Shown here: piece after piece, positions 7,955 to 32,000 of the stretch
How the letters are laid out: each line of letters opens with the position of its first letter
Numbering within the stretch: the first letter of the stretch is position 1
Assembly: GCF_008065095.1 (NCBI RefSeq)
Contig: NZ_CP042911.1
Span: forward strand, 4,410,001-4,442,000
Source: Gemmata obscuriglobus
GTDB lineage: Bacteria > Planctomycetota > Planctomycetia > Gemmatales > Gemmataceae
Reading direction: 5' to 3'
DNA: 32,000 bases
Program-made: the position numbers and the translations under genes
The notes under the pieces: generated by a model
Told to the model about the DNA's origin: nothing
The model's database searches: none
What the model saw: only the letters and a program-made list of their open reading frames with translations

Positions 7955-7961
7955 GGTCTTC

Positions 7962-7989
7962 TTTCATCCGGGCAACCCTCCCGCGCACA
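7962..7989 (+). promoter_or_regulatory. Conserved 21-nt box, copy 1 (TTTCATCCGGGCAACCCTCCC, plus conserved tail GCGCACA)
   Basis: One of four co-oriented copies. The CAT of the box is 33 nt upstream of ATG 7998. Function unknown; see findings. Confidence 0.6.
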
Positions 7990-13740: not shown

Positions 13741-13742
13741 CG

Positions 13743-14087: not shown

Positions 14088-14124
14088 CGGCCGCTCTCAT
14101 CGCCTCGCCCCACCGGAAGGACCC

Positions 14125-14604
14125 ATGCCCATCACCGATTACCACGTGCTGATCCGCGACGCCGTCCGAGCGGCGCTCCAGGCCGCCACCGACGCGCTCG
14201 CCACCGAACTCGCCGCGCAGCCGCTCCCGTGGCACGCGGTGGACGAGCTCGACGACGCCGCGCGGCTCACCCGCCCGTGCGGGGTCGTGTGTTGCGTCGG
14301 CCCGGAGCAGGAGCGCCCGGAGTTCGGCACCAATCGCCAGGACGGCCGCGGCTACCCGGTCGCGGTGATGCTGCTCGGCAGCGGGAAGAGCCACGGCGAG
14401 AAGCACACCGGGCCGACGGACCTCACGGGGTTCAGGAGATTGGTGACGACGACGCTCAACCGCCAGCGGCTCGCCGGCGTCGCCCAGGTCGCGGTGTGCG
14501 AGGTGGGCGACAGCGGGCCGATCGTGGACGAGAAGGCGCCGCTGTTCCAGGTGCTCGCAACGGCGCTGGTGGTGAGCTGCGTGGGTCGGTTCCCGCGGGG
14601 GTGA
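14125..14604 (+). CDS. Hypothetical protein (159 aa). By position it is a neck/tail-terminator candidate.
   Basis: ATG 14125 follows GGAAGGA. It is the last + strand gene before the tail tube module. Its size and layout are compatible with DUF3168/gpU-like tail completion proteins, but I cannot verify this. Confidence 0.55.
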   Translation: MPITDYHVLIRDAVRAALQAATDALATELAAQPLPWHAVDELDDAARLTRPCGVVCCVGPEQERPEFGTNRQDGRGYPVAVMLLGSGKSHGEKHTGPTDLTGFRRLVTTTLNRQRLAGVAQVAVCEVGDSGPIVDEKAPLFQVLATALVVSCVGRFPRG

Positions 14605-14699
14605 GTGGAGTGGCTTCTGTGCGGCTGCTCAGGAATCCCATCTGTATACTTATAAAATATTCACATTTGTTGAACTTATTTGATAATAATTTATTGGAT

Positions 14700-15731: not shown

Positions 15732-15752
15732 CCGGGCAACCCGCCCCCGCAC
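15726..15752 (+). promoter_or_regulatory. Conserved 21-nt box, copy 2 (TTTCATCCGGGCAACCCGCCC, plus CCGCAC)
   Basis: Same orientation as the other copies. The CAT is 74 nt upstream of the tail tube ATG 15803. CCAACTC lies 12 nt upstream here and 13 nt upstream at copy 1. Confidence 0.6.
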
Positions 15753-15802
15753 ACTAAAGCCTCACCGGGCCGCGTGTTCCGCTTGGGGGTGAGGGCGCTA
15801 CG

Positions 15803-16678
15803 ATGGCGGACAAGGTCGGCGTGTTCAACCGCTTGCTGTACGCCGGCTCCGGCGTTACCACGGCCACGCACGAGTTCGAGTTCCTCGAAGGCTCGACGCT
15901 GGGCCTCTCTGAGAACTTCATCGACACGAACGGCATCCGGGGTACCCGCTCGCACAGCTCCGAGCGGGTGCGGCGCGGGACCCGGCGGGTCGACGGCCAG
16001 ATCATTCTGGCCCCGACGCCGGTCGAGCTCGCCGTCTGGCTGCCGCTGATCCTGGGCGGCACGCCCTCGGGCACGAGCTACCCGCTCGGCGAGAACCTGC
16101 CGCTGTTCAACCTGTTCGGCGTGCGGGACGGGACCGTGTACACGTACTCGGACTGCGTCGTCACGAACGCGACGTTCAGCGCGTCCGAGGGCGGCCCGAT
16201 GCAGCTGTCGCTGACGATCATCGGCAAGGACGAGACCCAGTCCGGCTCCGCCGGCGCCGCGACCATCGACCTGACCACGCAGCCGTTCGTGCTGCACGAC
16301 GCGGTGGTGTCGGTGGGCGGCTCGAACCGCGAGGTGGCGAGCTTCTCGCTCGCGATCGACAACGTCGTCGAGGCCAAGTTCCGCAACTCGGCGACGATCA
16401 CCCAGCTCAAGGCCACCGACCGCAACGTGACCGTCGACCTGCCGGTGAGCCTCGGGACCGACGCGGCGCTGTACGGCTCGGCCGTCGGGGGCGTGGCCAC
16501 GACGCTCACGCTCACCAACGGGGGCTGCTCGCTGACCTTCTCCATGACCAAGGTGCAGGCCCCGAAGCAGCCGCTCCCGTTCGGCCAGCGGGGCATTCTG
16601 GACCTGCCCTGGCGCGGCGTCGCCCGCAAGGACGGCGCCACGCCGGAGCTCACCACCACACTGGACAGCACCCCATGA
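15803..16678 (+). CDS. Putative major tail (tube) protein, siphovirus type
   Basis: It sits directly upstream of the G/GT chaperone pair and the tape measure. It is beta-rich and 291 aa long, with an N-terminal pattern THEFEFLEGSTLGLSENFIDTNGIRGTRS...VDGQIILAPTPVEL reminiscent of phage tube proteins. No sheath gene is present. Confidence 0.6.
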   Translation: MADKVGVFNRLLYAGSGVTTATHEFEFLEGSTLGLSENFIDTNGIRGTRSHSSERVRRGTRRVDGQIILAPTPVELAVWLPLILGGTPSGTSYPLGENLPLFNLFGVRDGTVYTYSDCVVTNATFSASEGGPMQLSLTIIGKDETQSGSAGAATIDLTTQPFVLHDAVVSVGGSNREVASFSLAIDNVVEAKFRNSATITQLKATDRNVTVDLPVSLGTDAALYGSAVGGVATTLTLTNGGCSLTFSMTKVQAPKQPLPFGQRGILDLPWRGVARKDGATPELTTTLDSTP

Positions 16679-17028: not shown

Positions 17029-17402
17029 GCCTGCACCCCCGAATCGCCGCCCGCGCGTGCGACGACTGCCGGCACTGGTGGTACGACGAGCGGGGCGAGG
17101 TGGTCACCCGCGGCGGCCAACCGCTCCGCCGGCCCAGGGGCTCGCACCCGCCCTGCGGCAAGTGCCCCAAGGTGCCGGCCGGGACCGAGCGCCCGTCGCC
17201 GGCGGAGGCCGTCGAGCTCACCGACCAGCACCGCCGGACCGTGCGGTTCTACCGCGAGTGCCGGGCGGTCGGCCGGTTCCCCGACGACCCGCTCGTCCGC
17301 TGGGCCGCCGCGGTCATCCGGTCCGCCGAGGACCACTGCGAGCGCGTGTCGAGCCAGCGGACCCAGCTCGCGGTCCTGTCCGCGCTCCGAGGTGACACGT
17401 GA
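16675..17402 (+). CDS. Tail assembly chaperone -1 frameshift fusion (lambda gpGT analogue): 16675..17004 joined to 17004..17402
   Basis: The slip at G_GGA_AAC moves into the frame of track ORF 16848..17402, reading ...EAEGK/LWWGVRLLSLHPRIAARACDDCRHWW.... That frame has no ATG/GTG start before its first CxxC. It ends in a GTGA overlap with the tape measure start at 17399. Confidence 0.7.
16998..17004 (+). promoter_or_regulatory. Programmed -1 ribosomal frameshift slippery heptamer G_GGA_AAC
   Basis: The X_XXY_YYZ pattern is in the zero frame of 16675..17028 (GAG GGA AAC). Lambda G/GT uses G_GGA_AAG. The position between the tube and tape measure genes is the conserved location for this recoding event. 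Confidence 0.75.
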
Positions 17403-19186
17403 CCCCGGCCCAAAAGCAACTCGAGCTGCGCCTCAAGGTCACGGCCGACGTGGCCGACGCGCAGCGGAACCTCCAGCAGCTCGCGACCGCCGCCCAGCAG
17501 ACGCACGGCCGGGCCGCCGGCCCCCAGGGCTTCGGCGGCTACGTTCCGCCGCCCGGCTTCGGGGCGCCGGGGCAACCGCCGGCCCCGGCGGCGGGCGGCG
17601 CGGTGCCGCGCCCCGGCCCGTTCACCTCGGCGGTGCCGGCGTTCGACCGCCCGGTCCCGGTGGTGATCGTCGGGCCGAAGCCGCTGCACGTCACCGGAAC
17701 GGGCGGCGCGGGTGCCGGCCCCGGGGGCGGGGCCGGGGGCAAGAGCGCGGGCGACAAAGAAAAGGAGCGGCACGAGGCGCTGCTGACCTCGTTGCGGAAC
17801 CTCCAGCTCGGGGGAACCGTCGGACGGTACGAACAGATCAAGGGGTTCGGCGAGGCCGCGGGCAAGCTCGGCCTCCCCGGCGGGGCGCTGCTCGGCCGCC
17901 TGGCCGGCCCGGCGGCGATCGCCCTGGGCGCGCTGCAGGTGGCGGGCGACGCCGGGGAGATCCTCAGCGACGAGTACACGACCGGCGAGCAGAAGGGCCG
18001 GGCGGCGGTGCGGAAGTTCGTCCCCTTCGGCGAGACCATCCAGAGCTCGATCGACGGGCTGACCGGGCGCAAGGCCGGGATGGAGCGGGCCGAGGTGGAC
18101 TACCAGAAGCAGATGGCCGAGGTGAGCGCGCGGGCCGAGAAGGCGTCGTTCGACCTGGGCTACCGCCCCGAACAGGCCGGGTACGAGGCGCGCGAAACGC
18201 TGCTCGCCCGCGCGACACCGATCCTGGAGGGGGCGAGCGACCGCACCACCGCCGCCGGCGAGAAGGCGTTCCGGGACCGGCAGCGGCTGCTGCCGATCGA
18301 GCGCGAGGAGGCGAAGCTCCAGCGCGAGGCGGCCGTCGCCACCGCGCAACGCGCCAGCGCCGAGGCGGCGCTGGGCGACATCCAGGCCAAGCGGGCCGAG
18401 GCGGCGCGGCGCGAGCAGCAGAAGGGCCGGGAGCTGGGGGGCGACGGCCGCCCGCTCCTGCCGACCGCGGTTTCGTTACTGGCCTTCGGGCCGGTGACGC
18501 ACGCGCTCTTGGGGGGCCGGGGGACGTACGACGCGAACCAGTCCGGCGTGTCCCGCCAGCGCACCCTGTACGAGCAGGCGGCGGCGGGGGCCGAGGCGCA
18601 GCAGCTCGGCGAGCTCGAGAAGCAGGCCCGCCGCGCGGTGGTCGAGGCCCGCCGCCGGGAGGCCGAGACCGGGCGATCTGCCGGACAGGCCCGAGTGCAG
18701 CGCCTCCAGGCCGAGGCCGACATCCTTGATGGGGACGCCTCCCAGGCGGCCTCGGGCGCGCAGTCGCTCGGCGGAATGGATCGCTTCTCACGTGCGAACG
18801 CCGTGCGCTCGCTGCAGCTGCTGCAGCAGTTCGGCCCGGAGCGGATGAGCCCCCGCGAGCTGGCCGAGGCGCGCGCGGTCGCCCCACAAACGGTGGCGAA
18901 GATCCTCGAGCAGGCGGGCAAGCAGACGCCCCAGTTCGACGCCCTCCGCGCGCTCGCGCCCGCGGACTACGCCGGCGACCCGGAAGAACTGCGCCGCAAA
19001 GCGCAGGAGAAGCGCGACGAGGCCGCCCAGAAGGAGCTCGACCTCGATCGCACCCTTGCGACCAAGGTCGCGGCGGCCGGGCGCGACCTCGGCAAGTACA
19101 TCGGCGACATCATCGACCAGATCGCCGACGAGATCAAAAAAGGGATCGACCGCGACAAGCGGATCGGACGGGGGGCCAGCAGCTAG
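17399..19186 (+). CDS. Tape measure protein (595 aa)
   Basis: It follows the G/GT pair. It is long, Ala/Gly/Arg/Glu-rich and helical, with Gly-rich tracts. The rule of thumb of about 0.15 nm per residue predicts a tail of roughly 90 nm. Confidence 0.8.
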   Translation: MTPAQKQLELRLKVTADVADAQRNLQQLATAAQQTHGRAAGPQGFGGYVPPPGFGAPGQPPAPAAGGAVPRPGPFTSAVPAFDRPVPVVIVGPKPLHVTGTGGAGAGPGGGAGGKSAGDKEKERHEALLTSLRNLQLGGTVGRYEQIKGFGEAAGKLGLPGGALLGRLAGPAAIALGALQVAGDAGEILSDEYTTGEQKGRAAVRKFVPFGETIQSSIDGLTGRKAGMERAEVDYQKQMAEVSARAEKASFDLGYRPEQAGYEARETLLARATPILEGASDRTTAAGEKAFRDRQRLLPIEREEAKLQREAAVATAQRASAEAALGDIQAKRAEAARREQQKGRELGGDGRPLLPTAVSLLAFGPVTHALLGGRGTYDANQSGVSRQRTLYEQAAAGAEAQQLGELEKQARRAVVEARRREAETGRSAGQARVQRLQAEADILDGDASQAASGAQSLGGMDRFSRANAVRSLQLLQQFGPERMSPRELAEARAVAPQTVAKILEQAGKQTPQFDALRALAPADYAGDPEELRRKAQEKRDEAAQKELDLDRTLATKVAAAGRDLGKYIGDIIDQIADEIKKGIDRDKRIGRGASS

Positions 19187-20064: not shown

Positions 20065-20219
20065 GCGCAGGTCGCTCCGGTGCGGGCGCACGCACCGGCG
20101 GCGGCGGCCCGCGCGCCGTCCCGCCCCTCACTCTCACACCGGGGTATTGGACCCGATCGGCTGCGTTGCGCCAAGGGGTTCCGGGGTCAGGGGTTGTGGC
20201 GGGTGGGCGCCCCGCGCAC

Positions 20220-20247
20220 TTTCATCCGGGCAACCCGCCCCGCGAAG
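20220..20247 (+). promoter_or_regulatory. Conserved 21-nt box, copy 3 (TTTCATCCGGGCAACCCGCCC, plus CGCGAAG)
   Basis: Same orientation as the other copies. The CAT is 33 nt upstream of ATG 20256, the same spacing as copy 1. Confidence 0.6.
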
Positions 20248-22230: not shown

Positions 22231-24441
22231 GTGGCCCTCGAACTCGGCCAGAGCGCGAGCTGGCCCGGCGTCGCCGCCGTGGAGAGCTGCACGGGCACGG
22301 TCTCGCACGGGATCACGCCCGGCGTGTTCGTCATGTCGACGTACCCGCAGACCGCGGCCCCGCGCGCGTTCGGCGACCTGGTGCTGTCCGACGGGGTGCG
22401 GGCGGCGGTGTTTCGCGGGTGCAAGCTGGACGCGGTCAGCGGGCGCGCCGGGCCGGACGGGCAGACGTTCACGCTCACCATCCTCGACCGGCGGTGGCGG
22501 TGGCGGTACGGGGCCATCTCCGGGCGGTACAACCAGCTCGACAAGCGCGGCAAGCTGGTCCCGTGGACGATCCGCAGCCCGCAGGAGCTCGCCGAGCTGT
22601 GCCTGAAGGCGATGGGCGAGCGGAACTACGTGATCAACCTCCCCGCGGGCCTCACCGCGGCGGCGGGCGCGAACCTGGAACAGTACCTCCGGGCCGGCGA
22701 GGACTTCCCGCAGAGCCTGACGAACCCGCCCACGGTGTGGGACCTGATCCCGCCGGCGGAGGCCCTCGCGCGGCTCGCCGACCTGTACGGGTGCCGGGTG
22801 ATTTATCAGCCGTTCGCGGACCGCGTGGTGGTGGCCCCGCTGGGCGCCGGCGGGCCGCTCACGGACTTCCCGTGCGAGTCGATCGCCCCGAACGTGGACG
22901 GCCCCGAGACGCCGTCCGCGGTGGGCGTGGCGGGCGCGCCGGTGCGGGTCCAGATGCGGCTCCTCCTGGAGCCCGTGGGCAAGGAGTGGGACGGCAGCTA
23001 CCGCCCGGTGAACGAGCTGAGCTACGCCCCGCAGGGCGGCGGAAAGGTGCAGATCTCCACCGCCGCGTACGACGGTGCCGGCCCCAACCCGTCGATCAAG
23101 GTCTACCTGCGGTTCAACCGGGACTGGGCCGCGCCCGCACCCCTGCCCGACAAGGCGGTGTTCGCCCAGTTCGGGTCGTCGGCGGCGGGCAGCGCTGCCG
23201 ACAAGCTGGCCGACGTGGCGGCGGCGATCAACGGGCACCCGGACTGCGCGCCGGTCCTGAAGGCCGAGGCCGCCGGCGACGTGCTGACGGTCACGGGGCT
23301 GGCCCAGGGGTTCCCGTTCGAGCTCGAGGCCGAGTCCAGCAGCCCCGGCCCCCCGGACCGGTTCGAGGCGGCGGTGGTGCAGCCCCCCGAGCGGCCCGGC
23401 CCCAACTGGGAGAGCTGCCCGCTGCCCAACTTCCCGGCCGTCCGCGCCACCGACCGGCTCAGCTACGATCAGGCGGTGCTCCTGGCGCAGGGGAGCGTGT
23501 TCAAGTGCTACCGGGTGCTGAACGCCGACGCGGAGACGGGGCGCCCGCCGATCCGCGTGCCCGGGTACGGCGGGCTGGTCCGCCGGCACCAGCTCACCCT
23601 CCAGCCGACGAAGGTCGACCAGGTGGCCCCGGAGCCGCGCGAGAAGGGCGTGATCCGCCGGGTGCCGAACGTGGACGAAGCGATCCGCGGTCCGCTTGGC
23701 GGACTGCCGGAGTTTTACGACGGCTACAGTCGCGACCAGGGCGCGGACGTGTACGGCAGCGTCTGGAAGCTGCTCGGTAACGTGGTCTGGGACGGGGACC
23801 GGCGGGAGGACAACACCGGCCCCGAGGACAAGGTGTACGTGCCGATCGCGGAGATCGACCCCATCTCCCAGGTCGTCACCTTCACCGATTACGTGTACCG
23901 GTACGCGATCGTCGCCGGCACCGACGTGCGGCAGGCCTTCCCGACCCTGACCCTCGAAACCGCCGTCCTCGTGTCGGTCTCGGACACGGGGGAACTGGTC
24001 CGCGCGAAGTACACGGCCAAGCTCGGCGGCGCGGCGCCCGTGGAGTGGCAGATCCGCGAGGACGTGCAGCTGTGCGTCCGCGGGCGGTACGGGCCGAAGA
24101 ACAAGTACCTGGGGCGCGAGTGGGTGGACCAGAAGGAGGCCGAGGCCCGGGCCGCGTACTACCTGGCCGGGATGGCCCACCGGTACCGGGTGACCGGGGG
24201 CGAGACCCGGCAGTACATAGGCATCCACCTGATCAACCTGGACGGGCACGTGCAGCAGGTGAGCTGGAGCGTCGGCCCCGGCGGCGCGTCCACCGTCGCC
24301 AGCACCAACAGCGAGCACAGCGCCAGCGTCCCCCCGTACGCGGCCCGGCGCCGCGCCGAGAACCTGCCGCCGGACAAGTCGGCGGCGCTGGCCAACTTCT
24401 TTGAGGAGGAGCGGGCCGGGCGCCTGCTGCCGCCGCGATGA
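22231..24441 (+). CDS. Large tail tip/hub protein (736 aa)
   Basis: GTG 22231 lies 1 nt after the previous stop, with AGGA upstream. It is the largest distal tail gene. Its ATGA overlap couples it to the next gene. No family verified. Confidence 0.65.
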   Translation: MALELGQSASWPGVAAVESCTGTVSHGITPGVFVMSTYPQTAAPRAFGDLVLSDGVRAAVFRGCKLDAVSGRAGPDGQTFTLTILDRRWRWRYGAISGRYNQLDKRGKLVPWTIRSPQELAELCLKAMGERNYVINLPAGLTAAAGANLEQYLRAGEDFPQSLTNPPTVWDLIPPAEALARLADLYGCRVIYQPFADRVVVAPLGAGGPLTDFPCESIAPNVDGPETPSAVGVAGAPVRVQMRLLLEPVGKEWDGSYRPVNELSYAPQGGGKVQISTAAYDGAGPNPSIKVYLRFNRDWAAPAPLPDKAVFAQFGSSAAGSAADKLADVAAAINGHPDCAPVLKAEAAGDVLTVTGLAQGFPFELEAESSSPGPPDRFEAAVVQPPERPGPNWESCPLPNFPAVRATDRLSYDQAVLLAQGSVFKCYRVLNADAETGRPPIRVPGYGGLVRRHQLTLQPTKVDQVAPEPREKGVIRRVPNVDEAIRGPLGGLPEFYDGYSRDQGADVYGSVWKLLGNVVWDGDRREDNTGPEDKVYVPIAEIDPISQVVTFTDYVYRYAIVAGTDVRQAFPTLTLETAVLVSVSDTGELVRAKYTAKLGGAAPVEWQIREDVQLCVRGRYGPKNKYLGREWVDQKEAEARAAYYLAGMAHRYRVTGGETRQYIGIHLINLDGHVQQVSWSVGPGGASTVASTNSEHSASVPPYAARRRAENLPPDKSAALANFFEEERAGRLLPPR

Positions 24442-26111
24442 GCGACCGCACCGACTGGGTCCCGCTGTCGAACGCCTCGGGCGGGCCGGTGCCGTCGTGC
24501 GCCCTCGCGCGGGTGACGGGCGTCGCGAACGGGCTGTTCACGGTCGACACGCCCGACGCCGACGGCGACCCGCACCTGGTGGCCGTCGGGTTCTCGCTCG
24601 TCCCCACGGGCGGCCGGGGCACGGGCACGTTCGACCCGCGCGCCGTCCTGGCGTACGAGGAGGCCGACGGCACGCCCCAACCGGGCGAGGAGTGGGGTGC
24701 GGGCGCCGGCACCTGGAAGCTGCGGAAGGGCAAGACGGGGTGGCGCATCCTGGGCGGGGCCGGGCGCGGGCTGGTGAACGCGGTGCGGGCGTGCTGCGGC
24801 ACGACCACGACCACAACGACCGCCGCGCCCACCACCACCGCCGGCCCGTGCGCCGGCGCGTGCCAGTGGACCTACTCCGCCTCATCGAAAGCCTGGACCC
24901 GCACCGCCTCCACCTGCGCCGCCGGCTGCGCCTGCCTCGCCCCGACGTGGTGCCCGGGCGCCGACGCCTGCGCCACCACCGCGTGCGGCCGCCTCGCCGC
25001 CGACGCCAAGGCGCCGAACTGCACCGGCGCGACCACGACGGGCGGCCCGTGCCCGGCCCCGGCGGACTGCGCCGAGGGGTGCGACTGGTTCTGCCACCCG
25101 GTCCGCGGGTGGGTGCAGACGCGCAACGGGTGCGCCGGCTACTGCGGCTGTCAGCCGCCGGCCGGGGCGTGCTCGTCCTGTGCGCCGGCACACACCCCGT
25201 GCGTGGTGCCGCCGTCGTTCTGCAACGGTGGGTGCCGCTGGGTGTGGGTGTCGGGGGTGGCGGGCGAGAGCGACCGCTGGGAGAAGATTGGCGACACCTG
25301 CGCCGGCTCGCGCGTGCCCAACTGCTCCTGCGACGCGCCGGCCGCCCCCGGGAACTCTTGTGGTCACGAGGCCGCCACCCGCTGCTACGTCCACGGCGCC
25401 GCCGACCCGTGCGCGGCGGTGACCACGTCATCGCCCGCCGGGTGCGGCGACTGCATCTGGGGCTCGGACAGCGGCACCGCTTGGGACAAGGTGGTGCGGC
25501 CGTGCGGGAACGCCGGCGGGTGCTCGTGCCAGGTGCCGCCCGGCGCCCCGTCCGGCACCTGCGCCCAGGCGGCCGGGGCGTGCGTGCCGCTGCCCGTCAC
25601 CACGACGGCCGCGCCGACCACCACCGCCGGGCCGCCCACCACGACAACGACCACCACCACCGCGCAGCCGTTCTCCTGCTGGCAGTGCCGGTACCAGGGT
25701 TTCGTCCGCTTCGTGTGCACGGGCGAACCGGGCCACCCGTGCGAGAATTACGAGACCCCGACCCTGCGGTCGCAGTTCCCGTCCGAGGTCGCGTGCACCA
25801 ACGGTTGCGGCCCCGGCGGCGGCACGACGGCGGCGCCGACCACGACCACCAGCACCACCACACCCGCGCCGACCACCACCACGGGCGGCCCGGCGGTGGA
25901 CTACTACTGCTGCCAGTGCCCCGGGGGCGTGGCGCGGTGCTCCTTCGATCCGATTAACCAGTGCGCGGGCTGTACGGTCACGGGGCCGATGTCCCTGGCG
26001 TCGTGCAACGGCACCTGCGCGGGCGCGGGAACGACCACCACACCGCCGCCGCCGCCGCCGCCGCCGCCACCGCCCGTAACCACCGGGCTCAGCACCAGCA
26101 GCCCGTTTTGA
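24438..26111 (+). CDS. Cysteine-rich (about 50 Cys) distal tail protein with poly-Thr/Pro mucin-like linkers. Candidate receptor-binding/fibre protein.
   Basis: ATGA coupling to the tail tip gene. There are four about 35-aa CxGxCxW...W...CxxxCxC modules (aa 138-385). Thr-rich linkers are TTTTTTTAAPTTTAGP, TTTAAPTTTAGPPTTTTTTTT and TTAAPTTTTSTTTPAPTTTT. The C-terminus is TTTT-P11. Confidence 0.7.
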   Translation: MSDRTDWVPLSNASGGPVPSCALARVTGVANGLFTVDTPDADGDPHLVAVGFSLVPTGGRGTGTFDPRAVLAYEEADGTPQPGEEWGAGAGTWKLRKGKTGWRILGGAGRGLVNAVRACCGTTTTTTTAAPTTTAGPCAGACQWTYSASSKAWTRTASTCAAGCACLAPTWCPGADACATTACGRLAADAKAPNCTGATTTGGPCPAPADCAEGCDWFCHPVRGWVQTRNGCAGYCGCQPPAGACSSCAPAHTPCVVPPSFCNGGCRWVWVSGVAGESDRWEKIGDTCAGSRVPNCSCDAPAAPGNSCGHEAATRCYVHGAADPCAAVTTSSPAGCGDCIWGSDSGTAWDKVVRPCGNAGGCSCQVPPGAPSGTCAQAAGACVPLPVTTTAAPTTTAGPPTTTTTTTTAQPFSCWQCRYQGFVRFVCTGEPGHPCENYETPTLRSQFPSEVACTNGCGPGGGTTAAPTTTTSTTTPAPTTTTGGPAVDYYCCQCPGGVARCSFDPINQCAGCTVTGPMSLASCNGTCAGAGTTTTPPPPPPPPPPPVTTGLSTSSPF

Positions 26112-26140
26112 CCGGACCCCAGCTTCACGAGACGAGCGAC

Positions 26141-28639
26141 ATGAGCAGCCCGCTGACGATCGGCATGGCGACCCGGGGCGAGCCGGACCACGTGTGGTTC
26201 GTGCTCTCGGCCCTGGCCGCGAACCACCCGCGGGTCGAGTACCTGGTGGTGGACAACACCCCGGAGCGGGACCCGCGGGTGGAGGCGATCACCCGGGCCG
26301 TCGGCGGCCGGTACCTGCACCGCCCGGACCTCACCGGTACGTCCAAGCCCCGGGACGCCGTGTTCCGGTTCGCCCGCACCCCGTGGGCCGTGTGCCTCGA
26401 CAGCCACGTGATTCTGGAAACGGGCGCGGTGCAGGCGGCCCTCGACTTCGCGGCCCGGAACCCGGACTCGCGGGACATCGTGTCCGGGCCGCTGGTGTAC
26501 GACGACGGCCGAGGGCTGAGCACACACTGGAAGACGAACCCGGGCGGCGGGTTGTGGGGCACGTGGGACACGGACCCGCGCGGCGCGGATCCGGCGGGCG
26601 AGCCGTTCGAGATCCCCATGATGGGCCTCGGGCTGTGGCTGATGCGGACCGCGGCGTGGCCCGGGTTCCACCCGCTGTTCAACGGGTTCGGGGGCGAGGA
26701 GGGGTACGTTCACGAGGTGGTGCGGCGCCGCGGGGGCCGGGCGCTGTGCGTGCCCGGGCTGCGGTGGCGGCACAAGTTCCGGGACGTGTCCGGCTGGCAC
26801 AACAACCCGCCGCCCCCGTACCCGCTCCGCACCGAGGACCACGTGTGGAACCTGCTGGTCGGTCACCGGGAACTCGGCATTGAGGCGGACCAGCAGATCC
26901 GCGAGCACTTCGGGAAGAACCTGGGGGCGGACACCTGGGACAGACTCGTCAAGACCGCGGCGCACGTTCAGCCCCTTGACGGCCCCCGTCCGGGTCCAAC
27001 GCGGCAGCGCATACTGGCCCTGTGGTACAGCGATAACAGCGCCCCGGACCCCCTCCTCATGCGCTCGCTTCAGTCCGTGATTGACGCCCGGGAGCAGACC
27101 ATCCGGCACGACGTGACCGTCAGCGCGTGCGCCTGGGAGATCGGCGGGAACCTGGGCATTCTCCCGAGCGTGAACACCCCCGGGATCATGCTCCGGAGCT
27201 TCATCGGGGCGCGGAAGCGGGGCTATAACACGATCCTGGCCCAGATCCGGCAGGCGGTGGCCCATGCCACCGCTTCGGGCGAGGAGTACGACGCGGTCGC
27301 GTTCTGCGAGCACGACGTGCTGTACCCCCCGGGGTACTTCGACCGGCTCGGGGACGCCCTCGCCGCGCACCCGTCGGCCCCGGTGGTGTCGCACCGCGAT
27401 TACATCGGCCTCAGCGGCACCGGCTGGCAGCGGGTGCGTGAGCGACACGAGCCCCTGCACCAGCTCTGCCTCCGCTGGGACACGATCCAGAGCAACCTCG
27501 CGCGAGCCGAACGTGAGGCGGCGAGCGGCGCGGCGGTGGTGCTTGAGCCGGACCATGAGGCCGATCGGTCCGCCTGGGCGCGGCTGGAGCCCGCCGACCC
27601 CGCGGGCATGAGTGGCACTCCGAGTGTTCACGTCAATCACAATGCCGGCCGGTTCACGGCGCACGGGGACGTGTGCTACGAGCCGCGCGGCGCGTCCCTG
27701 TGGCACCCGCACTGGGGTGAGGCGCGGCACTGGTGGCCCGGCCCGATGGTCACGGTGTCGAACGTGGACGTGACGCAGTTCAAACCCGAGAAGCCGGCCG
27801 GGTGCTCGGCGTGCGAGGCGAACGCGCACCCGACCCCGGAGGCGTGGGCGCGGGCCGCCGCGGCGAAGCCGTCCGACTTTCACGAGCACGTGGGCACTCT
27901 CCGGGAACTGGCGGCGAAGTGCTCGAGCGCTGCGGAGCTGTCGCTGTGGATGAAGCCGGCGGACGCGGCGATCGTCGCCGGCCTCCCGGCCGACGGCACG
28001 TTCGTGAGCGTGTGCCCACGCGCGAAGCCGCAGTGGGAGCGCATGAAGGGCTGGCTGGGGGCGCGGTTCGAGGGCCGCACGGCCGACCCGGCGACCGCGG
28101 ACCTGCCCCCGGTGGACCTGCTGTTCATCGACACCGAGCACACCGCCGACGCGCTCATGCCCCTGCTGGAGCGGCACCGCGAGCGGGTGGCGAAGTACAT
28201 CGCGGTCCACTGCACCGAGACGTTTGGGGAGAGCGGCGACCGGCCCGACGCCCCGGGCGTGCTGCACGCGCTGCGAACCTTCTGCCACCGCCACCCGGGC
28301 TGGGTGGTGAAGCGCCGCGACCGGAACAACCACGGGCTGATAGTTCTGTCGCGGTGCGCCGAGGACGTGAGGGCGAAGCCGGCGCTGTGGCGCCAGGCGA
28401 TGAACTACACGGCGGCGATGGCGCGGCACGTGGCGGACGGGCGCCGGACGGTGCCGCTGGACGTGCTGGAGGCGCGGCAGGCCGAGTGCGCCCTGTGCGA
28501 GGAGCGGGCGCTGGACGCGTGCGCCGCGTGCGGCTGCCCGCTGGAGGCGAAGCTGCCCCTCGCAACCGAATCGTGCGGGCTGGTGAAGAAGGGGCAGGCG
28601 CCGAAGTGGGGGGCGTGGCCCGCGGGCGCGGCCGCGTAA
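26141..28639 (+). CDS. Multi-domain glycosyltransferase (832 aa): N-terminal GT-A/GT2-like domain, a second GT-A-like region, a class-I-methyltransferase-like region and a C-terminal Cys cluster
   Basis: N-terminus: IGMATRGEP...YLVVDNTPERD...AVCLDSHVIL...IPMMGLGLWLMR...FGGEEGY (GT2 layout with a D-S-H metal motif at 26399-26407). Middle: ALWYSDNS...AFCEHDVLYPPGYF. Then VDLLFIDTEHTADALMPLLE...IAVHC, which is Methyltransf_24-like although the Gly-rich SAM loop is not obvious. The end is CALCEERALDACAACGCP. Confidence 0.8.
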   Translation: MSSPLTIGMATRGEPDHVWFVLSALAANHPRVEYLVVDNTPERDPRVEAITRAVGGRYLHRPDLTGTSKPRDAVFRFARTPWAVCLDSHVILETGAVQAALDFAARNPDSRDIVSGPLVYDDGRGLSTHWKTNPGGGLWGTWDTDPRGADPAGEPFEIPMMGLGLWLMRTAAWPGFHPLFNGFGGEEGYVHEVVRRRGGRALCVPGLRWRHKFRDVSGWHNNPPPPYPLRTEDHVWNLLVGHRELGIEADQQIREHFGKNLGADTWDRLVKTAAHVQPLDGPRPGPTRQRILALWYSDNSAPDPLLMRSLQSVIDAREQTIRHDVTVSACAWEIGGNLGILPSVNTPGIMLRSFIGARKRGYNTILAQIRQAVAHATASGEEYDAVAFCEHDVLYPPGYFDRLGDALAAHPSAPVVSHRDYIGLSGTGWQRVRERHEPLHQLCLRWDTIQSNLARAEREAASGAAVVLEPDHEADRSAWARLEPADPAGMSGTPSVHVNHNAGRFTAHGDVCYEPRGASLWHPHWGEARHWWPGPMVTVSNVDVTQFKPEKPAGCSACEANAHPTPEAWARAAAAKPSDFHEHVGTLRELAAKCSSAAELSLWMKPADAAIVAGLPADGTFVSVCPRAKPQWERMKGWLGARFEGRTADPATADLPPVDLLFIDTEHTADALMPLLERHRERVAKYIAVHCTETFGESGDRPDAPGVLHALRTFCHRHPGWVVKRRDRNNHGLIVLSRCAEDVRAKPALWRQAMNYTAAMARHVADGRRTVPLDVLEARQAECALCEERALDACAACGCPLEAKLPLATESCGLVKKGQAPKWGAWPAGAAA

Positions 28640-28648
28640 ACGCAAAAA

Positions 28649-28678
28649 GCCCCCGGCGGGATCTCTCCCGCCGGGGGC
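28649..28678. terminator. Bidirectional terminator hairpin between convergent genes
   Basis: Perfect 13-bp stem GCCCCCGGCGGGA / TCCCGCCGGGGGC with a TCTC loop. An A5 run precedes it (a T-run for the - strand) and a T-containing tail follows it. It starts 10 nt after the stop at 28639. Confidence 0.7.
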
Positions 28679-28691
28679 TCTCGTATGGAAT

Positions 28692-28711
28692 CGCCCCGGA
28701 CAACCGGGGCG
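28692..28711. terminator. Second GC hairpin (CGCCCCGG-ACAA-CCGGGGCG)
   Basis: Perfect 8-bp stem with a tetraloop, 19 nt beyond the stop of the leftward gene ending at 28730. It belongs to the CCCCGG/CCGGGG hairpin family seen after every leftward gene. Confidence 0.45.
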
Positions 28712-28729
28712 GTCAAGCGGAACGGTCAG

Positions 28730-28969
28730 TCACTTCTTCCGGTCGGGCCTGTTCGGACGCAGTCCCCGCGGGTCCGCGGGGTACTCGCCGCCGTCGGACA
28801 GATCCCGTACCCGCGCCAGACACGATTCCGGATCCAGGGCCGGCAGAACTTCCACCTCGCCCCACCCCCGGACGTGCCGGTCCAGCCAGTACCGGCCGCC
28901 GGCTTTGAGGCGCGCGAGCGCGGCCCTCATCGCCCGCTGCTCCCGCTGCCACTCGCGGTACGTGTCCAT
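28730..28969 (-). CDS. Small hypothetical protein (79 aa)
   Basis: ATG 28969 has GGGAGGGA 5 nt upstream and is preceded by leader type A. G/C-rich third codon positions. The longer track ORF (to 29053) merely translates the conserved leader. Confidence 0.6.
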   Translation of the reverse strand: MDTYREWQREQRAMRAALARLKAGGRYWLDRHVRGWGEVEVLPALDPESCLARVRDLSDGGEYPADPRGLRPNRPDRKK

Positions 28970-28976
28970 CCCGTCC

Positions 28977-29040
28977 CTCCCTTGACTCCCCGTTGCTGGA
29001 CTTGTCACCAGCGTTCCACCGCGGAACGGTCGGGTTAAGG
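28977..29040 (-). repeat. Leader type A, copy 1
   Basis: A 37-nt block is identical to 30763-30799 (CTCCCTTGACTCCCCGTTGCTGGACTTGTCACCAGCG). It is followed by a hairpin whose stem differs from copy 2 by two compensatory pairs, then GGTCGGGTTAAGG. Confidence 0.7.
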
Positions 29041-29062
29041 GCCGGGGCCACAAGGCCCCGGC
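29041..29062. terminator. GC hairpin GCCGGGGCC-ACAA-GGCCCCGGC
   Basis: Perfect 9-bp stem 4 nt downstream (in - sense) of the stop of 29067..29399. Confidence 0.5.
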
Positions 29063-29066
29063 GGTG

Positions 29067-29399
29067 TCACGGGCCGGCGAGCCGCCGCACCCGCGGCGCC
29101 GCGCCCCGCTCGCGCAGGGCGTGGGACGGGTGCGTGACCCGCGCCGGCCGGTCCTCCGGCGCGAGCCGCCGGTCCTCGCGGGCGGCCTCGAGCGCGGCCC
29201 TCCGGGGCACGTCGCCCAGGAGCCCGCGGTCGCCGGCCAGCGCCGCGCACAGCAGGCGCACCGCGCACGCCGCGTGGAGCCCCACGAACACCAGGTGCAC
29301 GCCCGCCGGCCCGGCCCGCCCGGTGAGCCCGGCGTGGGCCGAGCTGCACGTGCCGCCGGCGAACACCAACCCCAACAGCAGCTGAAGCGCCTTCCTCAC
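29067..29399 (-). CDS. Small membrane/secreted protein (110 aa)
   Basis: GTG 29399 with GGAGGG 6 nt upstream. N-terminal signal-like helix MRKALQLLLGLVFAGGTCSSAHA and a second hydrophobic helix. Very G/C-rich third codon positions. Confidence 0.6.
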   Translation of the reverse strand: MRKALQLLLGLVFAGGTCSSAHAGLTGRAGPAGVHLVFVGLHAACAVRLLCAALAGDRGLLGDVPRRAALEAAREDRRLAPEDRPARVTHPSHALRERGAAPRVRRLAGP

Positions 29400-29523
29400 G
29401 AACGGCCCTCCGTCGACAGGAACCCGGCTCTGCGTTGCACGGGCTGGCCACCGTTCCCCGGCCCGCGCCGGGGAGCCGCATTACGGCCCCGCGGCCCCGG
29501 GAAACCGGGGCCGCGGCGGGCGC
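29400..29523 (-). repeat. Intergenic module type B, copy 1
   Basis: Blocks: CTCTGCGTTG (29428-29437); CACGGGCTGG; perfect 8-bp palindrome 29455-29462/29467-29474; GCCGCATTA (29475-29483); 12-bp hairpin 29489-29500/29505-29516 with a GAAA loop. Confidence 0.65.
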
Positions 29524-30396
29524 TCAGTCGCGCCCGCAGTAGCCGTGGAGCTTGCACCCCGCGGCCCGCAAGATGGCGCTGGCCTCGAGGCGGGTCTTGG
29601 CCGTCCGGACCCGGGCCCACACCTTGGCCGCACGGCGGTACGCCTCGCTGCCGCTCTGCCGGCTCGGGGTGATCTCCATCCACTCGTTCACGTCGTCGAG
29701 ATCGCGGATCGTCACGCCCGTCTCGTCCGCGCCGGCGGACCACGCGCCGGGGACCCCCGCCGTCAGCGGCACCGCCGGGGCGTCGACGCCCCGGATCTGT
29801 TCGTCGCGGACCACGATCCCGTACACCCGCGCCGCCTCCGGGTCGCCCGCGGTGTACGCCGCGAGCCGGGCGAGCAGCTCGGCCCGGAGCGCGTCGAAGT
29901 CGGTGTGCAGGCTGATCCCGTCGAGCCAGTGGCAGACGCCCTGGCAGAACCCGCCGCACCGGTCCTCGGGCGTGCCCGGGCGCGCGGCCCCGGCGCCCCA
30001 GCCGTTGAACCGGAGCACGCGGCAGGTCTTGCCGCGCTTCCCGGCGTTGGCCATGTCCGTGACCGTCGCGGTCCCGCTGCCCGGCCACGTCCGCGTGTGG
30101 ACGCGGGGCGGGGTCACGTGCTGTCGCAGCAAGCTGGCGGCCCGTTCGCCGCACGTGTCCGGTTGCGGGTTGTCGTCCAGGTAGTCGGCGAGCACCTCCT
30201 CGCCCCGCTGCTCCGCAATCACCGCCCGCGCCAGCGCGACCGCCTCCGGGTCGTCGCTGACCCAGCTCGGGCCGCGGCCGCCCGCGAGCGGGTACACGCT
30301 CGCCGCGAGGCCGCCGTCCCGCCACGGGCCGACGCGGACGTGCACGCCGTTCACGTCCGCCGTCTGCTCCCGGGGCGTTGCTTCCGTTGTCACCAT
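29524..30396 (-). CDS. Hypothetical protein (290 aa), Cys-containing, unknown function
   Basis: ATG 30396 with GGAGG 8 nt upstream. G/C-rich third codon positions. Bracketed by type B modules. No family recognised. Confidence 0.65.
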   Translation of the reverse strand: MVTTEATPREQTADVNGVHVRVGPWRDGGLAASVYPLAGGRGPSWVSDDPEAVALARAVIAEQRGEEVLADYLDDNPQPDTCGERAASLLRQHVTPPRVHTRTWPGSGTATVTDMANAGKRGKTCRVLRFNGWGAGAARPGTPEDRCGGFCQGVCHWLDGISLHTDFDALRAELLARLAAYTAGDPEAARVYGIVVRDEQIRGVDAPAVPLTAGVPGAWSAGADETGVTIRDLDDVNEWMEITPSRQSGSEAYRRAAKVWARVRTAKTRLEASAILRAAGCKLHGYCGRD

Positions 30397-30518
30397 CTGA
30401 AAACCTCCGTTCGTTCACCCCCCTCTGCATTCGCTCCGGGCTTGGGACCGGCGCCGCGGCGCGTGCCGCGGCGGCTGCATTACGGCCCGCGGCCCCCGGG
30501 TTCGGGGGCCGCGTCGGG
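30397..30518 (-). repeat. Intergenic module type B, copy 2
   Basis: Blocks: CTCTGCATTC (30423-30432); CTCCGGGCTTGG; perfect 9-bp palindrome 30452-30460/30465-30473; GCTGCATTA (30474-30482); 10-bp hairpin 30489-30498/30503-30512. Confidence 0.65.
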
Positions 30519-30755
30519 CTAGTTGCGCGTCATGTCGAGCGTGGCCCGCCAGTCGTCCCACGGGTCGAGCGGGCGCGTCGCGTAGTCCCACCGCAGCGCG
30601 GTCCGCTGCAGCGCCTCCACGTCCGCCACCGTCTCGCACCCCCGGAGCCGTTCGGAGAGGGCCTCGTGGTCCTCGTCCTCGCACAGGATCCCGCGGTCCA
30701 GGTTCCCCTGGATCCGCCGCTTCATCTCGCAAAGCGCCTCGTCGTCGGCTTGCAT
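30519..30755 (-). CDS. Small acidic hypothetical protein (78 aa)
   Basis: ATG 30755 with GGGAGG upstream, preceded by leader type A copy 2. The longer track ORF (to 30794) translates the leader. Confidence 0.6.
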   Translation of the reverse strand: MQADDEALCEMKRRIQGNLDRGILCEDEDHEALSERLRGCETVADVEALQRTALRWDYATRPLDPWDDWRATLDMTRN

Positions 30756-30762
30756 GAGCAGC

Positions 30763-30828
30763 CTCCCTTGACTCCCCGTTGCTGGACTTGTCACCAGCGC
30801 CCCACCGTGGGGCGGTCGGGTTAAGGGC
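30763..30828 (-). repeat. Leader type A, copy 2
   Basis: See copy 1. The hairpin here is CGCCCC-ACCGT-GGGGCG (30798-30814), against CGTTCC-ACCGC-GGAACG (29012-29028) in copy 1. Confidence 0.7.
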
Positions 30829-30854
30829 CGCGGCCCCGGTTTCCCGGGGCCGCG
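30829..30854. terminator. GC hairpin CGCGGCCCCGG-TTTC-CCGGGGCCGCG
   Basis: Perfect 11-bp stem 4 nt downstream (in - sense) of the stop of 30859..31107. It has the same stem as the hairpin at 29489-29516, with the loop in the opposite orientation. Confidence 0.55.
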
Positions 30855-30858
30855 ATCG

Positions 30859-31107
30859 TCACGTCGTCCGGGCCGGCCCGTCGAGGAACCGGTCCCACAG
30901 CGGCTTCAGGGCCGCCGCCACCACCCCGACCAGGCACCGCCCGTAAGCGAACCCGAGCACCAGGTGGAGCAGCAGGTGCCCGACCCGCGCGCCGACCGGG
31001 GCCGCCTCGACCGCGGCCGCCGGCGCCACCGCCTTGAGCGAGGTGATCAGGAACCACACCAGGGCCGCCCCCAGCGCCCACCCCGCCACGTTCTTCACCG
31101 CTTGCAT
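30859..31107 (-). CDS. Small membrane protein (82 aa, 2-3 hydrophobic helices). A holin-like or other membrane function is possible.
   Basis: ATG 31107 with GGGAGGGG upstream. Hydrophobic helices: VAGWALGAALVWFLITSL and HLLLHLVLGFAYGRCLVGVVAAAL. G/C-rich third codon positions. Confidence 0.6.
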   Translation of the reverse strand: MQAVKNVAGWALGAALVWFLITSLKAVAPAAAVEAAPVGARVGHLLLHLVLGFAYGRCLVGVVAAALKPLWDRFLDGPARTT

Positions 31108-31213
31108 TCCGAACCCCTCCCGCGCTCTGCATTCACCCGGGCTTGCGACCGGCCGCGGTTCTAGCCGCGGGCTGCATTAAGAGGGCGGGGGCCTCGGAGG
31201 CCCCCGCCGCGGG
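31108..31213 (-). repeat. Intergenic module type B, copy 3
   Basis: Blocks: CTCTGCATTC (31125-31134); ACCCGGGCTTGCG; CCGCGG-TTCTAG-CCGCGG (31153-31170); GCTGCATTAA (31171-31180); 9-bp hairpin 31185-31193/31199-31207. Confidence 0.65.
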
Positions 31214-31420
31214 TCACCAGTTCCGGCCCTTGTTGCCCCAGGCCCGGTAGCCCTCGGCCAGGAGCAGGCAGATGAGCTTGCGCTCGTTCTCCGTCTCCCC
31301 CCGGAGCGTCGGCACGTAGCCGCCGTCCAGCGCCGCCTTCAGCTCGTCCCAGGTGTCGAACGCGGTCACCGCGTTCACCAGCCGGTCCTTGATCTCGCCC
31401 GGCAGTTCGGCCTTGCACAT
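31214..31420 (-). CDS. Small hypothetical protein (68 aa); first gene of the leftward operon
   Basis: ATG 31420 with GGGGAGGG 7 nt upstream. It lies downstream of the AT-richer divergent control region. No family recognised. Confidence 0.6.
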   Translation of the reverse strand: MCKAELPGEIKDRLVNAVTAFDTWDELKAALDGGYVPTLRGETENERKLICLLLAEGYRAWGNKGRNW

Positions 31421-31490
31421 CGCCAGACCCTCCCCGGGAACGCACGCGGGCGGCCCGAGTGGCCGCCCGTCGCACGCCCCAACGGGACGA

Positions 31491-31581
31491 ATACTAGCGA
31501 ATCACTAGTGACGAGCGAAGAAAAATCGCTGGCGAATTTCTAGGCCGACACTAGTGACGCCGGGGCGGGGCCGCGTAGAGT
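31491..31581. promoter_or_regulatory. Divergent promoter/operator region: two perfect CACTAGTGAC palindrome-containing sites plus one degenerate copy, overlapping candidate leftward and rightward sigma70-like promoters
   Basis: CACTAGTGAC occurs at 31503-31512 and 31549-31558, and ACTAGCGA at 31492-31499. Leftward candidate: -10 TAGTAT (complement of 31491-31496) with a 17-nt spacer that contains operator 1. Rightward candidate: -35 GTGACG (31554-31559), 16-nt spacer, -10 TAGAGT (31576-31581). This is the AT-richest non-coding patch apart from the moron island. Confidence 0.4.
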
Positions 31582-31618
31582 GGGCGGGGCACTGCGGTGG
31601 CGCGGACGAGGGGCGGAC

Positions 31619-31888
31619 ATGGCGAAGCGGACGCGGCCCCGGCAGAACGTGGCCGGGGCCAAGCAGTTCAACTACGAGATCGACGGGGCGCTCGCGGACC
31701 GGTTCCGGCAGTTCTGCCGGGACCGCGGGGAGACGATCGTCGGCCACCTGGAGATGGCGCTGCGGCGGCACATGGACAACCCGCCGCCGGTGCCGGTGCT
31801 GCCCCCGCTCCCGCCGGTGCCGGCGCCCGCACCCCCGGCGAGCGGGGCGAAGGCGCGCGGGCGCGCGCCGAAGCCGAAGAGCGATTGA
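31619..31888 (+). CDS. Ribbon-helix-helix (CopG/Arc/MetJ-like) DNA-binding protein with a Pro-rich basic tail. Candidate repressor of the divergent region.
   Basis: ATG 31619 with GAGGGG upstream. FNYEIDGALADRFRQFCRDRGETIVGHLEMALRRHM fits the beta-strand/helix/helix RHH layout. Overlapping track ORFs on both strands were rejected. Confidence 0.7.
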   Translation: MAKRTRPRQNVAGAKQFNYEIDGALADRFRQFCRDRGETIVGHLEMALRRHMDNPPPVPVLPPLPPVPAPAPPASGAKARGRAPKPKSD

Positions 31889-31978
31889 GCCGGTGGAGGC
31901 GCGAGTTGGTTCCGAGGAATTCAGAGCCGGGTGAGGTGGCCGACTTCCCATCCGCGGGCGCGCGAGCGCGCGCCCCAC

Positions 31979-32000
31979 TTCCATCCGGGCAACCCGCCCG
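31979..32000 (+). promoter_or_regulatory. Conserved 21-nt box, copy 4 (TTCCATCCGGGCAACCCGCCC), truncated context at the window edge
   Basis: Same orientation as copies 1-3. It lies 91 nt after the RHH gene stop and is preceded by the GC palindrome GCGCGC-GA-GCGCGC. Confidence 0.55.

Follow-up and report, generated by a model that had tools for sequence, protein, structure and literature searches.

What are two near-identical leaders doing in front of two unrelated small genes? The question is raised by a locus on the minus strand of a 32,000-nt stretch of DNA attributed to Gemmata obscuriglobus (NCBI RefSeq contig NZ_CP042911.1, positions 4,410,001 to 4,442,000; hereafter the window, numbered from its first letter). 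A first-pass annotation had described these leaders as an element of their own, termed type A, and had proposed that they act as a cis-regulatory RNA, an RNase III-type processing site or a protein-binding site. The analysis presented here indicated that they are very probably type-P1 twister self-cleaving ribozymes carrying the stems P0 and P3, and that they constitute two of five twisters filling the gaps of a six-gene operon. Class membership rests on sequence, nested helices, pseudoknot complementarity and covariation, and the layout of the module is repeated from gap to gap. The twister class is already known; the copies in the window are new members of it and provide a natural example.

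The resemblance between the leaders was as close as reported. They share a 74-nt repeat (family D13) with 92% identity (28976-29049 versus 30762-30835), lie 1786 nt apart, and contain a 37-mer, CGCTGGTGACAAGTCCAGCAACGGGGAGTCAAGGGAG, that occurs exactly twice in the window, at 28977-29013 and 30763-30799 of the minus strand, and was matched in 0 of 100 dinucleotide-preserving shuffles. Pairwise alignment placed the identity from GGCCCTTAA to AAGGGAGG; outside this block the likeness was gone in both the upstream hairpin and the downstream coding sequence. All five differences between the copies fell within a single hairpin (CGUUCCG-CGG-UGGAACG versus CGCCCCA-CGG-UGGGGCG), in which two U-A pairs had changed to C-G and one G.U pair to A-U, so that the compensatory pairing noted previously was preserved throughout. 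The start codons ATG 28969 and ATG 30755, each preceded at 6 nt by a GGGAGG Shine-Dalgarno sequence, were read directly from the sequence and are as first described. The 79-aa and 78-aa proteins that follow gave no BLASTP alignment at E<=100, in keeping with the earlier statement that they are unrelated, and the description of the element as a non-coding RNA structure was likewise borne out.

The treatment of type A as a separate element was not sustained, since three further gaps of the operon hold a diverged version that had been overlooked, here called type B. One ribozyme module was present in each of the five intergenic gaps, two of them filled by type A and three by type B, in the common order of stop codon, GC-rich stem-loop (the optional twister stem P0) without a U tract, twister, Shine-Dalgarno sequence and start codon. 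Read from 5' to 3', the gaps share a UAA-containing motif, then a variable hairpin, then a short stem closed by the loop U-S-N-C-A-A-G-Y, and finally AAYGNRGAG. The five predicted twisters, with their scores against the Rfam twister-P1 model and against the model R2 introduced below, are as follows.

28979..29041, minus strand: predicted type A twister, copy 1, from the 5' strand of P1 to the 3' strand of P1; R2 48.2 bits, E 4e-14
30765..30827, minus strand: predicted type A twister, copy 2, at the coordinates of copy 1 plus 1786; R2 51.8 bits, E 3e-15
31119..31183, minus strand: type B twister separating the 68-aa gene from the 82-aa gene; 63.8 bits with Rfam twister-P1 (E 1.9e-13) and 58.9 bits with R2
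30417..30486, minus strand: type B twister separating the 78-aa gene from the 290-aa gene; 48.9 bits with Rfam (E 3.7e-9) and 54.8 bits with R2
29422..29487, minus strand: type B twister separating the 290-aa gene from the 110-aa gene; 36.4 bits with Rfam (E 1.4e-5) and 49.2 bits with R2

The Rfam twister-P1 model (RF03160) has a curated gathering cutoff of 67.2 bits and does not represent pseudoknots. Searches of the window in gathering mode returned no Rfam match, whilst E-value mode, applied to the 3 kb at 28600-31600, matched the three type B gaps to twister-P1 end to end (36.4-63.8 bits). A leave-out covariance model, R2, was built from alignment A3, consisting of 31 twisters of other genomes and metagenomes and zero window sequences. 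When run over the whole window with filters off, R2 found exactly the five gaps listed above, with the type A copies aligned end to end (30831-30760 and 29045-28974), and the next-best match in the window scored 9.3 bits. No sixth twister was found in the window by covariance-model searching with filters off, nor was any ribozyme found by this means in the divergent control region at 31421-31579. The first-pass annotation had recommended a covariance-model search; homologues elsewhere show covariation, and R2 recovers the five elements of the window.

Comparison with the Rfam consensus, ccuuUAAcgCcGCC[P3]GcCGGUCCCAAGCCCGggUAAAgGcgGAGGGaagg, showed what type A has kept and what it has changed. 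It retains the UAA motif, the C-C before P3 (C13, C14), the G-G-U/C-A-A-G/C-C of the P4 loop (G37, G38, U39, C42, A43, A44, G45, C47, C48) and the G-A-G after P2 (G60, A61, G62). All columns that are invariant in alignment A1 are also present, namely the AA of UAA, the C of T2, the L4 nucleotides G/U/C/A/G/C and the GAG after P2. Departures occur at eight consensus positions, every one of them as part of a compensatory pair: P2 has changed from UGCA/UGCA to CCCG/CGGG, T2 from GC:GC to AC:GU, the middle pair of P4 from C-G to U-A, and T1 from CCC:GGG to GAC:GUC. It is because of these eight paired changes, together with a shortened junction, that type A goes unseen by the Rfam model. Type A is thus no separate family; it is the most diverged of the operon's five twisters and of all the twisters compared.

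The anatomy of the type A copies could be traced nucleotide by nucleotide, using the nomenclature of P0-P5, P3, T1, T2, conserved loops and N-A cleavage site defined in PMC5408937 and PMC11662667. The helices of copy 1 were assigned by hand against the Rfam consensus. P1 pairs 29041-29037 with 28983-28979, P2 pairs 29034-29031 (CCCG) with 28992-28989 (CGGG), P3 occupies 29028-29012, and P4 pairs 29011-29009 with 28998-28996 and adds G29008-C28999, P4 and L4 together spanning 29011-28996. The pseudoknot T1 joins G29006, A29005 and C29004 of loop L4 to G28986, U28985 and C28984 on the 3' side of internal loop L1, and T2 joins A29030 and C29029, the dinucleotide behind the 5' strand of P2, to G29001 and U29000 of L4. 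G28988 is the counterpart of the general-base guanine of the consensus, and cleavage is predicted between U29037 and A29036. In copy 2, P3 lies at 30814-30798, P4 with its loop L4 at 30797-30782, and the predicted cleavage site between U30823 and A30822; its RNAfold minimum-free-energy structure (z = -3.2) gave P0, P1, P2, P3 and P4 exactly. The type A stems are accordingly P1 CCCUU/AAGGG, P2 CCCG/CGGG and P4 CUG(G)/(C)CAG, and the element ends within P1.

Two features singled out in the first-pass annotation can be placed within this fold. The GCTGG/CCAGC stem corresponds to P4, and the first three G of the Shine-Dalgarno sequence are at once the 3' strand of P1. The hairpin with the compensatory changes is under selection for pairing, as was argued, but it is just the optional, sequence-free P3, and the informative covariation resides in P2, P4, T1 and T2. 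The elements flanking the type A ribozymes are listed here.

29042..29062, minus strand: P0 stem-loop of copy 1 (by folding), CCGGGGCC-UUGU-GGCCCCGG, beginning 4 nt past the stop codon 29069-29067 and adjoining P1 directly
30828..30855, minus strand: P0 stem-loop of copy 2 (by folding), 12 bp, UCGCGGCCCCGG-GAAA-CCGGGGCCGCGG, following the stop codon 30861-30859, with no U tract behind it
28975..28981, minus strand: Shine-Dalgarno sequence GGGAGGG of the 79-aa gene (read from the sequence), equivalent to GGGAGG at 30767-30762 in copy 2

The type B copies conform to the same plan. Their predicted cleavage sites lie between U31179 and A31178 (T1 CGC:GCG, P0 hairpin 31208-31184), between U30482 and A30481 (T1 CCC:GGG, P0 hairpin 30512-30489) and between U29483 and A29482 (T1 GGC:GCC, P0 hairpin 29514-29491).

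Covariation in the pseudoknots, which lie outside the model used for alignment, was assessed in alignment A2, comprising 40 distinct model-aligned sequences. Here 93% of cells paired, compared with 74% in shuffles, none of 500 shuffles reached the observed value, and pairing fell to 28-43% when the partners were slid. The variable T1 pairs showed extensive double changes (GC19/CG17/UA3 and AU21/CG13/GC5), and T2 was GC26/AU12 with zero mismatches. An independent set, A5, was drawn from IMG/VR with two filters only, the 5'-half pattern and the nested model; each of the 46 viral contigs with the pattern proved to hold twisters, giving 72 matches and 36 distinct sequences in which T1 was 100% paired (CG26/AU10 at the variable pair). 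T1 was therefore 99-100% paired across A2 and A5, with both sides changing. Where metagenome matches had been picked by a U at the L4 position and by nothing else in T2, the partner, left free to vary, was A.

Relatives of the window elements were retrieved from several sources. With a degenerate 5'-half pattern derived from the window elements, 27 loci were retrieved from the genome collection, 13 of them model-confirmed twisters; the window's own genome was not among them. The T1/L4-variant pattern of type A identified 15 metagenome contigs, most of which held complete twisters on inspection, and the combination of GAC:GUC with AC:GU was present in at least 11 metagenome contigs with differing P1, P2 and P3, scoring 34-59 bits with Rfam. 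Most environmental relatives scored 34-64 bits with the same model. One twister of the GAC:GUC and AC:GU type (contig L093, 5-82) lies directly upstream of the closest homologue of the operon's 290-aa protein (64% identity); it shares the type A P1 (CCCU/AGGG) and has an ordinary P2 and P4 and a 5-nt junction. Type A can thus be understood as an L093-like lineage that acquired further compensated changes and a shortened junction, and was thereby lost by the Rfam model. Other homologues of the 290-aa protein, in the phage contigs L094, L096 and L097, are mostly about 190 aa long and cover its C-terminal two-thirds; their neighbours include large-terminase, portal, clamp-loader-like AAA and DpdA-like genes, and no twister was found near them, indicating that the gene family is phage-borne and not always ribozyme-flanked. 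In IMG/VR, a locus search with the 290-aa protein found no relative and a scan with a type A-specific pattern found no match. An exact 20-mer of the identical block gave a single IMG/VR match (L001), which lies inside a low-GC phage coding region and was dismissed as chance. A Logan contig (L003) has its ends inside the two type A copies, most likely because the assembly broke at the 37-nt repeat and not because an RNA ends there; it was not used as evidence.

The module layout was also found in the relatives, nearly all of which share the order of stop codon, P0 hairpin, twister, Shine-Dalgarno sequence and start codon. Between the upstream stop codon and the cleavage site there are 7-67 nt, the hairpin adjoins P1, and the next start codon, with a Shine-Dalgarno-like motif, follows T1 and the ribozyme at a median distance of 16 nt; the sequence of P0 is not conserved. 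Arrays of 2-4 twisters recur, at times together with Hammerhead_II, matches to which lie amid twister arrays at 2711-2787 of contig L039 and 1494-1556 of contig L044 (50.6 and 45.2 bits, above the Rfam cutoff). The same gaps are hence filled by different ribozyme classes. A weak RAGATH-28 match was also seen among related arrays (L029, 7214-7302). The Planctomycetaceae metagenome-assembled genome DS2.012 (contig L005) holds four twisters in 2.6 kb (829-906, 1996-2071, 2573-2651 and 3356-3431), each between co-directional open reading frames (ORFs); the cleavage motif of one reads GAA instead of UAA. No paper joining twisters with Gemmata or the Planctomycetes was found in the literature searched.

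In type A, the nested stems P1, P2 and P4, the pseudoknots T1 and T2, the conserved L1/L4 nucleotides and the cleavage-site adenine are present, and the context is that typical of bacterial twisters, with phage head and tail-tube genes in the window and five twisters within 2.7 kb. Of the natural twisters assayed in the literature, 94% cleaved (PMC11662667). Several observations nevertheless weigh against the assignment. Type A gave no Rfam match even at E<=10 in the 3-kb search, and all five copies fall under the curated cutoff of 67.2 bits, although this cutoff is an annotation threshold and no biological criterion. The L2 junction of type A is a short, 3-nt CAA where most relatives have 4-6 nt, and its U-A pair in P4 is unique among the sequences compared. 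The type B copy at 29487-29422 reads CCAG for the consensus CAAG in L4, replacing a nearly invariant A with C, a departure also present in a relative (L044, 2028-2098). The pairing percentages of A1 and A2 are partly circular, as these alignments were partly pre-filtered for pairing, a circularity addressed through A5, which is independent, and through the leave-out model. The case for co-transcription of the six genes comes solely from the absence of promoter-like and terminator-like sites. Lastly, mean cleavage in vitro was 0.40 with P0 and 0.67 with P0 and P3, compared with 0.85 without (PMC11662667).

One rival reading is that the type A copies are decayed twister relics that no longer cleave and have been kept as structured leaders or spacers, or as hairpins that modulate translation. 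This explanation, which we consider unlikely, would account for the missing Rfam match, the unusually short L2 junction and the unique P4 pair, and would fit with the lowering of in vitro cleavage by P0 (PMC11662667). Decay would not, however, yield eight consensus departures that are all compensated in pairs whilst the catalytic positions stay intact. The copies are identical apart from P3, which is itself still paired, the T1/T2 variant is widespread, and the leave-out model gives type A about 50 bits. We retain the reading of type A as twisters, and these particular copies are probably catalytically active.

That the gaps are instead protein-dependent sites, either GC hairpins cut by RNase III in the manner of phage T7 or a conserved loop bound by a translational repressor, appears very improbable. 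Each gap does carry a GC hairpin of 9-12 bp (P0) right after the stop codon, in an intergenic layout like that of the T7 early processing sites, but the conserved part is wholly explained by the twister consensus and its pseudoknots, P0 sequences vary among relatives, and no protein partner is indicated. A T7-type RNase III site was rejected as a candidate, given that the conserved element is not a two-turn imperfect duplex and the only plain hairpins are the sequence-variable P0 stems. The candidates put forward in the first-pass annotation consequently fared unevenly: a probable mRNA processing site between genes stands, with T7 an apt functional analogy, whereas neither RNase III nor a binding protein is required, because the element is a predicted twister, a self-cleaving ribozyme.

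It is similarly hard to credit that the leaders are alike only because a segment was recently duplicated, or because they are a small mobile repeat without a function of its own. Two copies 1786 nt apart at 92% identity, with frames open through both (from TTG 29053 and GTG 30794), would suit such an origin. Identity ends exactly at the ribozyme boundaries, however, and excludes the coding sequence, whose inclusion the first-pass annotation had named among the findings that would count against it; the downstream proteins are unrelated, and the family occurs in dozens of unrelated contigs with covariation at the RNA level. Duplication or recombination may explain the origin of the copies, but not their identity.

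Least credible is the proposal that each gap combines a terminator with a promoter and that every gene is its own transcription unit, for though a GC-rich hairpin follows each stop codon, P0 has no U tract, no sigma-70-like promoter or terminator-like site was found by scanning 28500-31700, and the AT-containing UAA is the predicted ribozyme cleavage site. A promoter within the conserved block (sigma-70 -35/-10 or sigma-54) was rejected on unfit spacing and hexamers and a negative scan. Likewise rejected was a lambda nut site (boxA and boxB) starting from CUCUUAA; this motif is the P1 strand plus the cleavage site, occurs five times in this one operon, and has a twister fold downstream, where a nut site would be expected once per operon arm with a single protein-binding hairpin.

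With the twister assignment retained, the organisation of the operon becomes relevant to what the ribozymes might do. Its components are as follows.

28730..31420, minus strand: operon of six small genes (ORF list, codon-position GC pattern)
31420-31214, minus strand: gene 1, 68 aa (ORF list, as for genes 2 to 6)
31107-30859, minus strand: gene 2, 82 aa
30755-30519, minus strand: gene 3, 78 aa
30396-29524, minus strand: gene 4, 290 aa
29399-29067, minus strand: gene 5, 110 aa
28969-28730, minus strand: gene 6, 79 aa
31421..31579, no strand assigned: divergent control region, relatively AT-rich, with two CACTAGTG palindromes; presumed promoter and operator of the operon
28650..28714, minus strand: two hairpins after the last gene, the second followed by UUUUU (read from the sequence)

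Neither the six proteins nor the divergent 102-aa protein had a Pfam or PHROG match. The six genes are probably co-transcribed, since the scan found no promoter-like or terminator-like site in the gaps, and the hairpins at 28650-28714 are a probable terminator shared with the convergent glycosyltransferase gene at 25961-28639. An Acido-1 match at this double hairpin (28652-28714; 30.7 bits against a cutoff of 50) probably reflects the terminator hairpins only. The two CACTAGTG palindromes, at 31505-31575 between the ribozyme operon and the plus-strand 102-aa gene (31580-31888), look like the operators of a switch region.

Most likely, the ribozymes would serve to cut a long operon transcript into single-gene messages. 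The operon would be transcribed as a single RNA from the divergent control region (approximately 31421-31579), and each ribozyme would form P1, P2, P4, T1 and T2 while its gap is being transcribed. The backbone would then cut itself between the U and the A of UAA, which in type A are U29037 and A29036, and U30823 and A30822. The upstream message would end with the stable P0 hairpin, a few extra nucleotides and a 2',3'-cyclic phosphate, and its downstream neighbour would begin with a 5'-OH, followed by the compact ribozyme fold, the Shine-Dalgarno sequence and the start codon. A polycistronic RNA would in this way be resolved into separate messages, individually stabilised and independently translated, these consequences for mRNA stability and translation being those that cleavage at the predicted sites would be expected to have. 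The processing of polycistronic mRNA by such ribozymes, and their association with phage genes, have been proposed before (PMC6765202, PMC8782182).

More tentatively, and with some doubt, we suggest that the module could be more than a passive cutter, acting as a natural, tunable insulator of the expression of each gene in phage accessory operons. The 3' strand of P1 belongs in part to the Shine-Dalgarno sequence, both in type A and in many relatives; self-cleavage would remove the 5' strand and could thereby license translation of the downstream gene, whilst the P0 hairpin would determine how stable the upstream message is. A difference in cleavage rate between types A and B might in turn set the stoichiometry of the six proteins. 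In pseudoknot-free folding, the unpaired probability of the Shine-Dalgarno sequence rose clearly in copy 2 alone, from 0.24 in the precursor to 0.51 in the 3' product, against 0.30 to 0.36 in copy 1, and the type B copies showed no consistent change; unmasking of the Shine-Dalgarno sequence by cleavage is a speculative proposal.

The operon apparently lies in a prophage of Gemmata obscuriglobus with a Mu-like head. The window was recognised as phage or prophage because Mu F-like, Mu gpT-like major head and tail-tube proteins are encoded on its plus strand. NCBI assembly GCA_000171775.1, which we take to be that of Gemmata obscuriglobus UQM 2246, includes the 290-aa protein on contig ABGO01000177.1. 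The G+C content of the window is 72-79% over most of its length, and falls to 60-65% at 13000-16000, upstream of the tail-tube gene.

Several further observations were made elsewhere in the window. The 18-nt sequence CTTYCATCCGGGCAACCC has four plus-strand copies (7961-7978, 15725-15742, 20219-20236 and 31978-31995; 0.02 expected). All are placed 20-80 nt ahead of a start codon on that strand, one of these codons being the tail-tube start at 15803, and one copy comes immediately after a hairpin that has a T run. The motif is a possible late promoter, or a site for an activator, in the prophage. A predicted 557-aa protein (24438-26111, plus strand), for which no family match was found, is Cys-rich and has Thr/Pro tracts of the TTTTAAPTTTAGP kind in repeated form as well as some 15 prolines in a row; just downstream of its gene is that for an 892-aa protein (25961-28639) containing a family 2 glycosyltransferase domain. 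Three related coding segments (135-231, 2868-2926 and 6297-6393, plus strand), with 71-80% DNA identity, are found in or near three plus-strand ORFs of the head region, which suggests a shared protein module. ARAGORN reported a 'tRNA-???' with a four-base anticodon at 17524-17619 (plus strand), within a long, high-GC3 ORF (17399-19186), and this call is probably a false positive.

The assignment turns what was an unknown leader into a precise and testable annotation. It also exposes a blind spot of pseudoknot-free models, in that curated models miss twisters whose pseudoknot partners have co-varied. The biological role of bacterial and phage twisters has been described as unresolved (PMC6765202). 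If the attribution to Gemmata obscuriglobus is right, the locus offers, in a cultivable host, a convenient natural operon of five modules in which to test the processing of mRNA by ribozymes.

When set beside known systems, the elements most closely resemble the type-P1 twisters (RF03160, clan CL00120; PMC5408937), with which they share P1, P2 and P4, optional P0 and P3, a T1 of 3 bp and a T2 of 2 bp, an N-A dinucleotide within UAA, the conserved L1 and L4 nucleotides including the G-A after P2, termini in P1, and placement among phage genes. The stem-loop lying directly upstream of the 5' end has its counterpart in the optional P0/L0 of other twisters (PMC11662667). Type A differs from the RF03160 consensus in its eight nucleotides swapped as compensatory pairs and in its 3-nt L2 junction. 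The host lineage of the window twisters is Planctomycetota. In the early genes of phage T7, host RNase III cuts long imperfect duplexes and yields hairpin-ended messages, a functional analogy in that structured elements in the gaps of a phage operon split a polycistronic RNA; unlike T7, where the host enzyme is needed, the RNA of the window has its own predicted catalytic fold and would require no protein. Type II hammerheads and RAGATH RNAs occupy the same genomic niche with an unrelated fold, and gene neighbourhoods common to hammerhead/RAGATH RNAs and twisters have been reported (PMC6765202, PMC8782182); no hammerhead was found in the window by Rfam gathering mode, or in 28600-31600 by E-value mode. 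The closest likeness in layout is to the synthetic system pRAP (PMC9872166), which places the same series of stabilising stem-loop, twister, ribosome-binding site and ORF between cistrons, and in which cleavage leaves the hairpin on the upstream 3' end and the ribozyme on the downstream 5' end. The pRAP twister cleaves in vivo in E. coli, where the stem-loop is required for continued expression of the upstream cistrons (PMC9872166). Whilst pRAP reuses a single twister sequence in E. coli, the window holds five natural modules of two sequence types, with hairpin, twister and ribosome-binding site in every gap, a layout at which engineers have arrived independently (PMC9872166).

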